Assembly (NCBI GenBank): GCA_963697975.1 | Contig: OY969111.1 | Coordinates: 1,665,764-1,729,763 of the forward strand | Source of the DNA: an uncultured Acidobacteriota bacterium | Lineage (GTDB): Bacteria; Acidobacteriota; Blastocatellia; Pyrinomonadales; Pyrinomonadaceae | DNA length: 64,000 nucleotides | Reading direction: 5' to 3' | Shown: in pieces, positions 16,225 to 18,755 of the stretch | Layout: each line of letters begins with the position of its first letter | Numbering within the stretch: the first letter of the stretch is position 1 | The notes under the pieces: model-generated | What the model saw: the letters and a program-made list of their open reading frames with translations, nothing else | Told to the model about the DNA's origin: nothing | Databases searched by the model: none | Made by a program: the position numbers and the translations under genes

Positions 16225-16850
16225 TTGCCCGCTCCAGTCTTCAATTGACCGAGAGTTAAATTAATAAGAGCTATCGAGGAGAGCTATGGCTTAATTGCTT
16301 AAAGTCAAAATCTACATCGATTCAGCAACCCCTAGAAGTGCTTGCCGGATAAACTCTTTCAATGTCCTTTGCCGGAAGCGAGAGCTGAGGAGCAAATTCA
16401 GCTTTCGCTTCCGGCGCGGGACAGGGCAAGCGGCACGTTCGAGGGGCACTCTTGCGCGCCTGACTGGGGGTGAGAGTTCCATTGAGTCGGTTCTCCTGGG
16501 TCGCACGAACTTTCCTGCCGAAGAAGCGCTCAATTCATGTCAATTGGTGCGGCTGTCAAACCCCGTGCGGTGGGTTCGTGAAGCGCCTGAGCGCCTCAAG
16601 CCGCGCCCATTACTTAACAAGCAGTGTGCCGCGAGGGTTCAAACTTCATCTTTCAGACTCAATTCGCAAAATGGTTGGACTTAGAGAGATTCAAGTATTG
16701 GGTGGGACAAAACACGGAGAGTCTTGCTCAATCAACCTGACAGGTCAGAATGATTCTCTCCGGTCAGTAGTGCAGTCGGTGCTGAGATTTGTCGTATCCA
16801 AAAATTTCAGTAGAGGTTCGATTTCAAATCGAATGCGCGCCGAGATGAGA

Positions 16851-16971
<121 letters not shown>

Positions 16972-17242
16972 TCGACTTTCCCTTCACTCTTTTCAAATTG
17001 AACCTCCGCCAAAATTTCTTGGAAGCCCGTTAAGCTCGGTGATATTATCCAAGCCGTAGATTTTGTTTGATTGAAGCGGCACTGAAAGACATGTTGGTGT
17101 CCTCGCCTTTCCTCTTTCGTCTTTGAGCTGGCAGGTTCGACTCTAGCGATTTAACTCACATTCCGGATTTCGGCCAATCCACGCAGGAGACCTGAGGCCG
17201 AATCAATCAGCGTGACATTTCGGCACGGGCGGTCGGGCGTTC

Positions 17243-17956
17243 ATGGATTCAGATATTTATTTATTTATCAGCTCAACCTCGGACTTGAGAGCCGAGCGCG
17301 AAGCTCTGGCCGAAGCGGAAGAACTGCGCCGCGCATACAAGCTCTTTCTTTACGAAGATTTTGGTGCGGGCAGCGACGAGGCGGGCAATACTTCTCCCGA
17401 AGAAATTCTCAGGGAGACGCTCTCGAAGTGTGATGTCTTTATTTGTCTGCTCGGCACTCGTTACGGCTCGCCCTACAAGCCGCCCGGTGACATGAGATCA
17501 ATCGTCGAGTGGGAATTTCAAACGGCGCAGTCCCGTCCCGGCATTGAGATTATGCCGTTTCGCAAGATCGTGCCGGAAGACCAGATTGAGCCTCCGCAGC
17601 GCGACTTCATCAATCGCATCTCCGCCTTCGGGATGAGCGGCAGGTGGTTCGAGAAATTCGATTCCCCGCAAACCCTGACCGTGCTCGTGCGTAAGTCAAT
17701 GGAAAACTGGTTAGCCCGGCAATACAAACGGACGCAGGCTAATATGATTCCCTGGCTCAACCGGATACTGGCACCGTTAGCCATCGGCTTAGTGCTGCTG
17801 TGTGTTCTCGTCTCATTGCTCTTTGTGCTGCAAATCGTGACGCTCTCGATGACCTCGCTGATAGGCTTTTGCGTCATCATCTTCTTCACAATCTTACTCG
17901 GCTTCGTGGCGCTCAAATCTCAAATGGGGGAGATAAAAAATGTCGCAGGTAGATGA
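17243..17956 (+). CDS. DUF4062-like (TIR/nucleoside-deoxyribosyltransferase-like) domain protein with two C-terminal TM helices
   Basis: N-terminus IYLFISSTSDLRAEREAL ... CDVFICLLGTRYGSP ... EWEFQTA matches the DUF4062 pattern as I recall it. C-terminal 70 aa form two hydrophobic helices. Lower GC. Confidence 0.55.
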   Translation: MDSDIYLFISSTSDLRAEREALAEAEELRRAYKLFLYEDFGAGSDEAGNTSPEEILRETLSKCDVFICLLGTRYGSPYKPPGDMRSIVEWEFQTAQSRPGIEIMPFRKIVPEDQIEPPQRDFINRISAFGMSGRWFEKFDSPQTLTVLVRKSMENWLARQYKRTQANMIPWLNRILAPLAIGLVLLCVLVSLLFVLQIVTLSMTSLIGFCVIIFFTILLGFVALKSQMGEIKNVAGR

Positions 17957-18677
17957 AGGAAGCACGCGTCAACGCGATTCGGAAACCTCTGAAGTCACGG
18001 TTGTCAGAAGCTCACAACCCGGAGACGATGCAGGATCGTTTGTCGAGCGCGAGACCAGGCGGCGCAAGCGACTGCTAAGATTTTATCTAATGCTGCTGAT
18101 TATTCCGGTGGCGCTCGCGATTGTCGTTCTGGTTTACGGGCGCTCCGACCGCCGTGTGGTGATGGACGAGATCAAGGCACAAGCTCCGCCCATCGTGCAG
18201 CGAGAGGTGGGCGAGCAGATCAGGCCGACGATTGAGACTGAAGTGCAAAAACAGATCAGCGAGCCGCTCACGCAGATTGACACTAAAATCAATGAGGTCG
18301 CCCAAACGAAAGTTTCGCAGGAGGAGATAAACAAGATTCAAGGTGAGAACGCGGCTCTCAGGAATGATTTGAGCGTCAAGATAGATGAGGTGGATAAATC
18401 GAAAGCCTCGCGAGAAGAGGTGACGAAGACGGTCAAGGACGGGAACGAGGCTATCAGGAATGAAGTAAATAATAGATTCGTTCAATCGAGCGTTTCGCGC
18501 GAGGAGATAGATAAGCTCCGACAAGAGAACGAAGCACTCAGGACTGAATTGAACACCGTTAAGAATGGTCTTGAAAGAAGAATGCAGGCGTTACAACAGC
18601 GGGTTATTTCGCTCTCTAATGATCGAATCAGAACGGATGAGATAATCAGACCGCAACCACAAAGACCTCCGCGATAA
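17940..18677 (+). CDS. membrane-anchored coiled-coil protein with internal repeats
   Basis: ATG overlaps the upstream gene by 17 nt. One N-terminal TM (LLRFYLMLLIIPVALAIVVLVY). Then repeated S.EEI.K...ENaALR.eL heptad-rich motifs. Confidence 0.5.
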   Translation: MSQVDEGSTRQRDSETSEVTVVRSSQPGDDAGSFVERETRRRKRLLRFYLMLLIIPVALAIVVLVYGRSDRRVVMDEIKAQAPPIVQREVGEQIRPTIETEVQKQISEPLTQIDTKINEVAQTKVSQEEINKIQGENAALRNDLSVKIDEVDKSKASREEVTKTVKDGNEAIRNEVNNRFVQSSVSREEIDKLRQENEALRTELNTVKNGLERRMQALQQRVISLSNDRIRTDEIIRPQPQRPPR

Positions 18678-18755
18678 AGTGCCTCCGGCATTGACAATCC
18701 TTAAACTGAAAATGCACCCTCTCAGTTATTCTTCATAGCAAGAGGCGGTGCGCTG

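Follow-up and report, generated by a model that had tools for sequence, protein, structure and literature searches.

The two overlapping genes analysed here encode a DUF4062 protein that ends in a membrane hairpin and a membrane partner with a long helical rod. They lie in a window of 64,000 nucleotides from an uncultured Acidobacteriota bacterium of the Pyrinomonadaceae (GenBank assembly GCA_963697975.1, contig OY969111.1, positions 1,665,764 to 1,729,763), the window being the whole stretch that was analysed. Our preferred reading, to which we give a probability of about one half, is that the cassette is a two-component variant of the NIR defence systems, in which a membrane-anchored NADase is controlled by an envelope-facing partner. 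Such a wiring of a DUF4062 NADase to cell-envelope events looks undescribed.

DUF4062, also called NIR, is a TIR-like NADase effector found in the Swarozyc, Evangelion, Avs2, Vulcan and Vesta systems (bioRxiv 10.64898/2026.05.01.722283, 10.64898/2026.06.25.731849, 10.64898/2026.09.04.749371), and was recognised in 2026 as an effector common to bacteria and to human TEP1. According to the same preprints, DUF4062 enzymes deplete NAD+ and confer an abortive-type phage defence that depends on a catalytic Glu (E97 in KpSwz, E108 in PsAvs2, and E87 in Eva01, together with an N-terminal aromatic residue, F11), and the characterised enzymes yield ADPR and nicotinamide. All the bacterial DUF4062 proteins characterised there are defence effectors, and the forms described there reside in the cytosol, where they sense phage proteins or nucleotides. 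A transmembrane (TM) or coiled-coil form of DUF4062 is absent from the main texts of the Swarozyc, Evangelion and Vesta/Vulcan preprints, and their supplement text, as far as it is searchable, mentions neither TM forms nor Acidobacteria. The original prediction that this pairing was undescribed thus holds against the main texts of the 2026 NIR preprints.

Layout of the cassette

Gene 1 (17243..17956, 237 codons) and gene 2 (17940..18677, 245 codons) are both on the plus strand and their open reading frames overlap by 17 nt, in exact agreement with the two-gene layout first proposed. A Shine-Dalgarno-like run, GGGGGAG (17926-17932, plus strand), can be read directly inside the 3' end of gene 1 and ends 7 nt ahead of the gene 2 ATG; the position of this ribosome-binding site within gene 1 is consistent with translational coupling. 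Upstream of the pair, a consensus scan returned a promoter-like site (17019..17048, plus strand), TTGGAA and TATTAT separated by 18 nt and with a TG extension, which is kept in the window and in loci L001, L003, L004 and L011. This candidate site, known from its consensus match alone, is probably the cassette's own promoter, and its use would give a 5' UTR of about 190 nt. On the other side, the MFS operon that follows the cassette has a -35-like box, TTGACA (18691..18696, plus strand); as TTGACAA-N16-17 also precedes the MFS gene in the cassette-free loci L041, L056, L060, L104 and L114, the insertion ends, on its right, at this shared box. The AT-richness noticed at the outset is real and modest, with a GC content of 0.525 for gene 1 and 0.509 for gene 2 where the flanking genes have 0.58-0.61; at third codon positions (GC3) the values are 0.65 and 0.57, respectively, versus 0.66-0.75. 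The best explanation of this arrangement is a self-contained, two-gene accessory operon.

Gene 1 combines a DUF4062 domain and a membrane hairpin

Gene 1 matches Pfam DUF4062 (PF13271) with E=7.9e-15 and 55.3 bits, for a gathering threshold of 24.7, the match running from residue 8 to residue 95 and covering profile positions 3-82 of 82. This is the sole significant Pfam domain of the protein, the remainder of which is TM, and it is present in all homologues. The DUF4062/NIR domain extends over residues 1 to 141 approximately; after it comes a stalk helix, continuous with the first helix (TM1) of the C-terminal 2-TM hairpin. The motifs that had been quoted in support of DUF4062 are present and invariant in the family (F8, SSTSD10-14, E18, R19, LLG..YG and SIVEWE86-91). 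Among them is the active-site motif S86-I-V-E89-W-E91 (S-x-T/V-E-x-E; 17498..17515, plus strand), which, like F8, is invariant in the family sets A1 (28/28 sequences) and A2 (18/18, down to 33% identity).

A PDB search with the family profile reached the solved NADase domains of KpSwz and TEP1 (positions 3-158), whereas a single-sequence phmmer search of the PDB gave no match. Against KpSwz, profile positions 3-154 correspond to chain residues 4-154 of 326, and the similarity ends there. SIVEWE aligns with SFTEK[A] of KpSwz (PDB 10wc), and the same motif is SVTEME in TEP1. E91 of gene 1 is aligned with an Ala of the deposited 10wc chain, which we infer to be the E97A mutant. Gene 1 thus has the TIR/nucleoside 2-deoxyribosyltransferase-like Rossmannoid fold, as had been expected of DUF4062. 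By analogy with the published biochemistry of the family, gene 1 is likely to be an active NADase.

The TM hairpin (17756..17920, plus strand) was delimited from hydropathy, flanking charge and the helices of an AF2 model. Hydropathy places TM1 at residues 172-196 and TM2 at residues 204-226 approximately, on either side of a short neutral loop, TLSMTS; the lone hydrophobic span of the protein, residues 168-229, contains both helices, and the AF2 model shows a helical hairpin made of helices 142-198 and 204-228. The fusion of DUF4062 to two C-terminal TM helices is therefore borne out. The charge is +4 before TM1 and +2 after TM2, and both ends of the hairpin are predicted to be cytoplasmic.

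Gene 2 is a membrane partner with a variable helical rod

From its N-terminus, the gene 2 protein, which crosses the membrane once, consists of a disordered tail, a conserved ERETRRRKR patch, a TM segment identified by hydropathy (residues 48-66, nt 18081-18137, plus strand), a conserved GRSDRRVV..EI segment, a variable rod and a Pro/Arg tip, PQPQRPPR (nt 18651-18674, plus strand). The rod (residues 85-236, about 170 aa) is all-helical in the AF2 model, with helices 85-122 and 127-236, and three repeats of about 30 aa can be read in it from nt 18333 on the plus strand, their S.EE[IV] motifs beginning at residues 132, 163 and 192 (spacing 31 and 29 aa). These features agree with the TM and repetitive coiled-coil protein that had been announced. 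Pfam, NCBIfam and PADLOC gave only weak coiled-coil noise for gene 2 and no phosphatase or other enzymatic domain, and neither PADLOC nor NCBIfam returned anything meaningful for either gene.

Conservation of the partners clusters in the juxtamembrane, TM and proximal segments, and the invariant residues lie solely within R37-V102; the rod is variable and evolves fast, and partners of different clades share a recurrent C-terminus, [RQK]-P-[PQ]-[RQ]. In 15 of 16 partners there are more K and R residues before the TM segment than after it (the other one being a tie), which by the positive-inside rule argues for an N-in/C-out orientation; the rod is thus predicted to face the periplasm. Among close relatives gene 1 has a dN/dS of 0.05-0.11 and gene 2 one of 0.18-0.42, and this purifying selection on both genes indicates that neither is a chance open reading frame.

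The pair is conserved across two phyla

Proteins with DUF4062 followed by two TM helices form a coherent clade of about 98 clusters at 50% identity, and the hairpin is kept in 90 of the best 96 representative clusters. No TM residue of the hairpin is invariant across clades, whereas the catalytic motif is. A homologous partner was found downstream of gene 1 in 18 of 19 species-level loci, so that the co-occurrence implied by the original prediction is confirmed; the partners are homologous to one another, including across clades, and the paired loci span four Acidobacteriota lineages and two Pseudomonadota MAGs, that is several classes and two phyla. The junction between the two genes ranges from -53 to +22 nt in the 18 partner-keeping loci (19 scanned). 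We propose, with good confidence, that the products of gene 1 and gene 2 function jointly in the membrane.

In three loci the partner is broken and gene 1 is intact, with all its catalytic residues. At L006 and L007 the partner is reduced to a TM-less remnant of 65 aa, identical in two independent assemblies, and at L016 it is frameshifted, possibly through a sequencing error.

Genomic context

In the lineage of the window the cassette is an indel of about 1.9 kb in an otherwise conserved, non-defence locus, and it is missing from all 35 testable related loci that retain the flanks. Across Pyrinomonadaceae the pair keeps this one chromosomal slot, with an HD-GYP/GAF/GGDEF gene on one side and an MFS-GNAT-LDcluster4-SDR operon on the other, down to 54% identity. 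In some loci the same insertion spot is occupied by other cargo. No integrase, transposase or other mobile-element marker was found beside the cassette in this lineage, and no relative of the cassette is encoded by IMG/VR viral contigs.

Conflict-type genes (bGSDM, CHAT, TIR, nSTAND1, PycTIR-like, PLD and STAND) were found in 6 of 10 distinct contexts, gene calls at loci with more than 70% GC being the collection's own. The neighbour sets comprise a gasdermin (PADLOC E=6e-72) with CHAT, TIR with nSTAND1 (twice), a trypsin-TIR with a PycTIR-like protein, and an LCAT-CHAT-TPR-S protein. The four other contexts are housekeeping or non-defence: that of the window's lineage and three more, for example one adjoining leuS. 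At a background rate of 10% the probability of at least 6 in 10 is 1.5e-4, a rough guide since the loci are few, hand-picked and uncontrolled. The defence or abortive-infection role that was first proposed is plausible, the evidence from context being mixed: the conflict-type neighbours and an insertion that relatives lack speak for it, and the fixed non-defence slot in Pyrinomonadaceae speaks against it. The possibility that homologues sit in housekeeping surroundings applies to 4 of the 10 contexts, the window's lineage among them, and not to the six with conflict-type neighbours. On balance we lean slightly towards an anti-phage or conflict role for the pair.

Links of the cassette to other genes and elements nearby were considered and rejected. 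The downstream LDcluster4 (SLOG) gene was a candidate signal receptor, but it belongs to the MFS operon that pre-exists in cassette-free loci. A GNAT gene follows the pair here and in L035, but the two GNATs are unrelated. A conserved element of about 405 nt upstream is present in cassette-free loci and absent from distant cassette loci. A first RNAalifold run on this element favoured the minus strand, and with 45 sequences both strands score about equally; the G·U versus A·C strand test is biased here, each structure having been predicted on its own strand.

Comparison with known systems

Among the closest known systems, Swarozyc KpSwz (10.64898/2026.05.01.722283; PDB 10wc, 11cq, 11cv) also has an N-terminal DUF4062 NADase with the same active-site motif, followed by a helical stalk that in KpSwz serves in dimerisation and autoinhibition. 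KpSwz is a soluble, single-gene protein (326 aa) and binds the phage portal through an auxiliary domain at its C-terminus; in place of this domain gene 1 has a 2-TM hairpin, and it has a membrane partner that looks obligate. Vesta, Vulcan and Avs2-NIR (10.64898/2026.09.04.749371) likewise use NIR as a modular NAD+-depleting effector, and Vesta (VstA/VstB), like the cassette, is an operon of two genes in which the NIR protein is small. However, VstB is an alkaline phosphatase, and defence does not require it, whereas gene 2 has no phosphatase domain; the NIR domain of Vulcan is fused to HEAT repeats, and that of Avs2 to a STAND NTPase and TPR repeats that are lacking in gene 1, which is made of DUF4062 and TM segments within 237 aa; none of the three is membrane-bound or has a coiled-coil partner. 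Evangelion Eva01 (10.64898/2026.06.25.731849) resembles gene 1 by its small DUF4062 core, with N-terminal Phe and catalytic Glu motifs, and by an auxiliary region at the C-terminus, which in Evangelion is short and diversified and is required for function. Evangelion is a single-gene system, borne by plasmids or other mobile genetic elements of Firmicutes and Proteobacteria and presented in its main text without TM segments, and this description sets it apart from the cassette, which is chromosomal, two-gene and membrane-embedded. In the accessible part of a survey of TIR defence in E. coli (PMC11350192), TM components are possible and several systems need two proteins, but they have canonical Pfam TIR or TIR_2 domains, and no periplasmic coiled-coil partner is described in that part.

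The cassette can also be compared, by analogy only, with membrane receptors to which it has no relationship of sequence or fold. In Zorya (ZorAB), Kiwa (KwaAB) and Toll-like receptors, a membrane sensor of an envelope event activates a cytoplasmic effector; the effectors of Zorya and Kiwa act on DNA and not on NAD+, and Toll-like receptors are composed of an extracellular LRR sensor, one TM segment and a cytosolic TIR domain. The latter topology resembles that of gene 2 and gene 1 combined, except that in the cassette the receptor and the TIR-like domain would be on separate polypeptides and that the ectodomain is a plain helical rod.

A model for the cassette and its alternatives

In the model that we favour, the catalytic domain of gene 1 would be cytoplasmic, tethered through its stalk helix and 2-TM hairpin, and kept inactive. 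The juxtamembrane and TM segments of gene 2 would contact the gene 1 hairpin, and gene 2 would send its variable rod of about 170 aa, with the Pro/Arg tip, into the periplasm. The partner would then relay an event at the envelope, of which phage attack is the likeliest, and the published biochemistry of the family leads us to infer, by analogy, an abortive-infection outcome. That the trigger acts at the envelope is suggested by anatomy only, and on anatomy too the partner might be a periplasmic sensor or activator, which we rate as somewhat less likely than not. A bolder version, rather speculative and on the whole doubtful, is that of a split Toll-like receptor, in which the rod, long enough to reach across much of the periplasm, would be a tripwire for envelope breach and would signal from TM to TM to the TIR-like NADase at the cytoplasmic face.

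It is unlikely, yet worth serious consideration, that the pair is instead a module of housekeeping or stress physiology, stable in soil Acidobacteriota, in which a membrane NAD+-consuming enzyme is coupled to envelope status, with possible roles in dormancy, envelope stress or cell-cycle control. Such a module would fit the constant synteny of the pair in Pyrinomonadaceae, beside c-di-GMP signalling and transporter genes, the strong purifying selection on gene 1, the four housekeeping contexts and the lack of adjacent mobile-element genes and of viral copies in IMG/VR. It accounts less well for an indel that is missing in close relatives, at a spot that holds other cargo elsewhere, for the conflict-type genes in 6 of 10 contexts, and for the fact that the bacterial DUF4062 proteins characterised in the 2026 preprints are defence effectors without exception.

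Gene 2 might be a labile inhibitor whose loss or degradation frees the gene 1 NADase, as in a toxin-antitoxin pair; the overlapping genes and the internal ribosome-binding site denote a tight coupling, the conserved part of the partner is the best placed to contact the gene 1 hairpin, and Vesta and Metis are published cases in which autotoxicity is held in check by a second gene. We nevertheless consider this improbable, because gene 1 is intact beside the remnant of L006/L007 and the frameshifted partner of L016, and because a mere inhibitor would not call for so long a rod (about 170 aa), ending in a conserved tip. In type II-like systems a toxin gene is not expected to persist without an intact antitoxin; gene 1 departs from this rule at three loci, which is weak evidence, as the frameshift at one of them may come from sequencing. 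These broken-partner loci disfavour an essential antitoxin and fit a sensor or activator better. Small 2-TM effectors are common in abortive-infection systems, and the hairpin, perhaps with the TM segment of the partner, might be a pore effector like those of CBASS or Pycsar, with DUF4062 as a nucleotide sensor or regulator. The retention of the hairpin in nearly all the best clusters would fit a pore, but it is the catalytic motif that is invariant, and not any TM residue across clades, and DUF4062 is the enzymatic effector in the systems of the 2026 preprints, which makes a pore quite improbable. TIR-fold enzymes can also make signalling nucleotides, such as the cyclic ADPR isomer of Thoeris ThsB, and this genome has a gene of the SLOG family, LDcluster4, three genes further downstream. 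That gene 1 makes such a nucleotide rather than depleting NAD+ is nonetheless very improbable, given that the characterised DUF4062 enzymes produce ADPR and nicotinamide, that LDcluster4 is part of an MFS operon that was there before the cassette, being present in 20 of 26 loci without it, and that in other clades the cassette is not accompanied by a receptor gene.

A membrane-anchored NADase with an extracytoplasmic partner, as we favour, would extend the DUF4062/NIR family to envelope-level sensing. Compact, with two proteins and some 480 aa altogether, the system would lend itself to studying how a TIR-like enzyme can be turned on from across a membrane. Acidobacteriota, which are dominant in soil but neglected by experimenters and barely covered by current defence catalogues, would gain a defence candidate as well. 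If the split-receptor version were true, the triggers would be events such as phage adsorption, injection or local wall damage, outside-in immune sensing would be coupled directly to NAD+ depletion, and the pair would be the first membrane-integrated two-component member of DUF4062/NIR, widespread in soil Acidobacteriota. If the pair is physiological and not immune, it would reveal a non-immune role for a bacterial DUF4062 protein, which none of the 2026 NIR preprints reports. The cassette is present in some genomes and absent from others at one conserved locus, and this polymorphism provides natural comparisons of an isogenic-like kind. Finally, at two loci, L009 and L004, dS is higher in the cassette than in the flanks, which could reflect allelic replacement or merely a weaker codon bias.

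Conservation and evolution of the pair

In the reading with most support, the cassette is a variant of the NIR/DUF4062 NADase defence systems that has two components and is integrated in the membrane, NIR being the other name of this TIR-like domain. Gene 1 (17243–17956, + strand, 237 aa) encodes a DUF4062 protein with two transmembrane (TM) helices, and gene 2 (17940–18677, + strand, 245 aa) its partner, a TM protein with a helical rod. Both ORFs and their 17-nt overlap lie exactly where the original prediction had placed them; a GGGGGAG run (17926–17932) lies inside gene 1, 7 nt 5' of the gene 2 ATG, and the cassette has a conserved promoter-like site of its own (17019–17048). As had been claimed, the pair is richer in AT than its flanks, with a GC content of 0.525 (gene 1) and 0.509 (gene 2) against 0.58–0.61 for the neighbours, and a GC3 of 0.65 and 0.57 against 0.66–0.75.

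Searched exhaustively with a profile of the gene 1 family, 1.84 billion representatives gave 7042 DUF4062 matches at E<=1e-3 and only 98 at E<=1e-30, nearly all of the latter being 215–235 aa long and aligned end to end; the C-terminal 2-TM hairpin is present in 90 of the 96 best. The DUF4062+2TM form is a distinct, sizeable clade, concentrated in Acidobacteriota. The gene 1 loci found in species-representative genomes (n=19) belong to Pyrinomonadaceae, to other Acidobacteriota (Thermoanaerobaculia, Vicinamibacteraceae, Acidobacteriaceae) and to two Pseudomonadota MAGs. The pair had been expected to be conserved across genomes and it is, since in 18 of the 19 loci a protein of gene 2 layout comes -53 to +22 nt after a gene 1 homologue (222–237 aa, two TM); the sole locus lacking the pair, L029, has a truncated gene 1. 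In one Vicinamibacteraceae MAG this second, truncated copy of 156 aa abuts a trypsin-TIR gene (L029 7983–9732) that resembles the one after the complete pair in L026 (2309–4850). By eye, its first ~110 residues equal those of the L026 copy, which suggests either a variant produced by deletion/recombination or a chimeric assembly.

Among close relatives, purifying selection acts on both genes: dN/dS is 0.05–0.11 for gene 1, like its neighbours, and 0.18–0.42 for gene 2, the maximum of the block against the related loci L001 and L003, exceeded against L004 by the GNAT gene. At deeper nodes, divergence of the cassette far outpaces that of its flanks; between the window and the more distant locus L009, identity is 54% for gene 1 and 51% for gene 2 (over half its length) versus 76–87% for the flanks. 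Synonymous divergence is also elevated: in L009 gene 1 has a dS of 1.3 and that of gene 2 is saturated, versus 0.49–0.78 for the flanks, and in L004 the cassette has 0.67–0.72 versus about 0.5. Either allelic replacement at this slot or a weaker codon bias could account for the excess.

Gene 1 and its membrane anchor

The proposed assignment of gene 1 to DUF4062 was upheld by Pfam PF13271 (E=7.9e-15, 55.3 bits for a cutoff of 24.7); PADLOC (2023) and NCBIfam gave no meaningful match for either protein of the pair. Invariant positions in a 28-sequence family alignment are F8, S10-S-T-S-D14, E18, R19, L70, G71, G75, S86-I-V-E-W-E91, A95, Q119, W135 and W156, and F8, SSTS, ER and SIVEWE are retained in a broader 18-sequence alignment that extends down to 33% identity. 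A single-sequence search of the PDB with gene 1 found no match; the family profile matched the DUF4062 domain of the Klebsiella Swarozyc protein KpSwz (10wc, E=2.2e-6, positions 3–154) and the NADase domain of human TEP1 (11gz, E=3.8e-6). The profile alignment puts gene 1 E89-W-E91 opposite T-E-K-A of KpSwz and, as the deposited protein is taken to be the E97A mutant (10.64898/2026.05.01.722283), with its Ala in that motif, E91 is most likely the equivalent of the catalytic Glu.

The two predicted C-terminal TM helices were recovered within a single 62-residue hydrophobic span (168–229). The AlphaFold2 model (pLDDT 80.6) has a beta-alpha-beta core (residues 1–140), a continuous helix running from the domain into TM1 (142–198) and a second helix (204–228). 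Charges of +4 before TM1 and +2 after TM2, with a neutral loop, predict that both termini, hence the enzyme domain, are cytoplasmic. The DUF4062/NIR domain of gene 1 is complete, apparently active and joined to a membrane anchor.

The partner protein

Gene 2 gave only sub-threshold coiled-coil noise in Pfam, PADLOC and NCBIfam. The N-terminal TM helix and the repeats ascribed to it are both present: one TM at residues 48–66, preceded by RRRKR, and three S.EE[IV] repeats starting at residues 132, 163 and 192. In the AlphaFold2 model the N-tail is disordered and three helices come after it (32–80, 85–122 and 127–236), with a pLDDT of 70 and a low pTM, as expected of a rod. The partners form one homologous family, with phmmer E-values against the window partner of 4e-10 to 5e-16 within Acidobacteriota (pairwise, 17-sequence set) and a far weaker ~5e-4 for the Pseudomonadota partner L028. 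They share a cytoplasmic ERExxRR[KR]R patch, a TM with YLxLLxVPVA and a post-TM GR[ST]DRxxV..E segment, which precede a variable rod with a recurrent C-terminal tip, [RQK]-P-[PQ]-[RQ]; nearly all invariants of a 35-sequence alignment fall in R37–V102, the only others being M1 and L218. K+R residues are more numerous before than after the TM in 15 of 16 partners (one tie), which predicts an N-in, C-out orientation with a periplasmic rod. The Pseudomonadota partners are longer (317–330 aa; L027 2800–3792 and L028 8700–9653) and have, instead of the Pro/Arg tip alone, an extra ~90-aa end, non-helical and beta-rich by eye, that may be a different sensing head.

The cassette as an indel

The pair occupies one slot throughout Pyrinomonadaceae, preceded by RR-HK, a 93-aa ORF, a divergent HD-GYP/GAF/GGDEF gene and ~0.7–1 kb of non-coding DNA, and followed by MFS, GNAT, LDcluster4, SDR, CBM9 and PilZ genes. 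A metagenome scan with a motif from the conserved non-coding element upstream of the cassette retrieved 48 related loci, with GGDEF on one side in 32 of the 36 testable; the cassette is absent from all 35 having enough sequence on the far side, where MFS is found in most and starts mostly ~120–390 nt past the element. The MFS promoter motif TTGACAA-N16-17, conserved in these cassette-free loci, is found in the window just past the gene 2 stop (18691–18696). This position, the cassette-free relatives and the cassette's own promoter-like site indicate that the cassette is a self-contained indel of ~1.9 kb. The spot between element and MFS promoter (window ~16770–18690) is variable: empty in most relatives, it holds the cassette in the window's clade, msrB on the opposite strand in metagenomic locus L060 (1608–2277; SelR domain, E=1.8e-42) and an unrelated, unannotated 168-aa ORF in L105 (3628–4312), and no integrase or repeat boundaries were identified there.

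Since 20 of 26 cassette-free loci also carry the downstream LDcluster4 (SLOG) gene, it is no part of the system. GNAT was also rejected as a shared associate, those following the pair in the window and in locus L035 being unrelated to each other. The MFS-GNAT-LDcluster4-SDR genes overlap by 4 nt (window 20102–20620/20617–21174) and look like one operon; since LDcluster4 directly follows MFS, without GNAT, in most cassette-free relatives, GNAT probably entered the window's clade independently, as a second insertion. Another small accessory insertion, likely a toxin-antitoxin pair, consists of a 77-aa ORF and a PIN-domain gene between SDR and CBM9 (L001/L002; L001 10148–10786), which were not called in L003 or L004 and are apparently absent from the window.

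Proposed mode of action and alternatives

In the NADase defence reading, the enzyme of gene 1 would be cytoplasmic yet held at the membrane, the conserved juxtamembrane and TM part of the partner would be positioned for contact with its anchor, and the variable, fast-evolving rod would extend toward the periplasm and could sense the envelope. In KpSwz, stalk helices after the domain form an autoinhibited oligomer that is reorganised by a phage protein (10.64898/2026.05.01.722283); by analogy, the stalk and TM helices of gene 1 probably keep the enzyme as an inactive oligomer, to be released when a trigger arrives through the partner, and the NADase activity so released would have an abortive outcome. 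That the cassette works specifically as a split TLR-like outside-in sensor is possible, though less likely than not. A toxin-antitoxin-like model, with the partner as inhibitor, is rather improbable, as three loci retain gene 1 although the partner is no longer intact, which argues for an activator or sensor over an essential antitoxin. In one sample represented by two assemblies (L006 6674–6871, L007 2185–2382) the partner is a TM-less 65-aa remnant beside an intact gene 1, and in the long-read MAG locus L016 (8700–9423) it is split by a frameshift, possibly a sequencing error, gene 1 again being intact. The hairpin as a pore-forming effector is very unlikely, and synthesis of a signal nucleotide by gene 1 is less likely still.

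A non-immune module of envelope or NAD physiology is unlikely, and less so than these last three models. For the defence role initially proposed, the genomic context is mixed: the Pyrinomonadaceae slot is non-defence and by itself speaks against an island, but conflict-type neighbours occur in 6 of 10 distinct contexts, a small sample not drawn blind, for which P(>=6/10) = 1.5e-4 at a 10% background is a rough guide only. They comprise gasdermin (PADLOC bGSDM, E=5.6e-72), metallophosphatase, CHAT/TPR-S and lipase at L008; TIR and nSTAND1/WD40, with an adjoining PLD, at L031; HEAT, nSTAND1 and TIR/SIR2 at L035–37; an adjoining 1757-aa DUF7379-LCAT-CHAT-TPR-S protein at L033 (Pseudomonadota); CHAT at L021; and Lip_C lipase, trypsin-TIR and a CAP12/PycTIR-type TIR at L026. 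Non-defence contexts are L022/L023, beside leuS (L019 apparently alike, judged by eye on its translations), L024/L030 and L032. None of the IMG/VR viral contigs carries the cassette. CHAT/TPR-S proteases and LCAT/Lip_C/DUF676-type lipases adjoin it repeatedly in unrelated taxa (L008 269–5449; L033 3408–8681; L021 2–1807; L026 346–1692), fused as one protein in L033 and beside gasdermin in L008, which could reflect island co-location or a functional link.

Relation to known systems

DUF4062 systems already described include the portal-activated Swarozyc (10.64898/2026.05.01.722283), Evangelion, carried on resistance plasmids (10.64898/2026.06.25.731849), and Avs2-NIR, Vulcan (NIR-HEAT) and the two-gene Vesta (NIR and alkaline phosphatase); ~20% of NIR genes have defence genes nearby, versus 3.9% expected (10.64898/2026.09.04.749371). 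A survey of canonical TIRs in E. coli describes both defence systems containing TM components and systems that depend on two proteins (PMC11350192). As the function of the domain is now known, the cassette is not categorically new; by their membership criteria it belongs to none of Swarozyc, Vesta, Vulcan and Avs2. The DUF4062+2TM fusion with a conserved, predicted periplasmic coiled-coil partner appears to be new, and the view that this pairing was undescribed agrees with the literature examined: the main texts on Swarozyc, Evangelion and Avs2-NIR/Vulcan/Vesta, and one supplement, mention no TM or coiled-coil architecture.

Non-coding DNA upstream of the cassette

Between the HD-GYP/GAF/GGDEF gene and the cassette lies the conserved element (16359–16763, ~405 nt), with invariant sequence blocks, indels of lengths not divisible by three, and covarying helices in which 14–24 pairs show >=2 Watson-Crick types (45 sequences); no Rfam model matched it, whether at gathering thresholds or in E-value mode. 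The element lies between GGDEF and MFS in at least 48 metagenomic loci, whether the cassette is present or not, and is a candidate novel structured RNA, either an ncRNA or a leader of the GGDEF gene or the MFS operon. A long near-perfect hairpin of CACAGAG/GGGGCACAGAG-type repeats (16846–16974) resembles a REP/MITE-type repeat; its only Rfam matches are generic miRNA-precursor hairpin models. The window, L001 and L003 alone have it, as an insertion that L004, L006, L009 and L011 lack.
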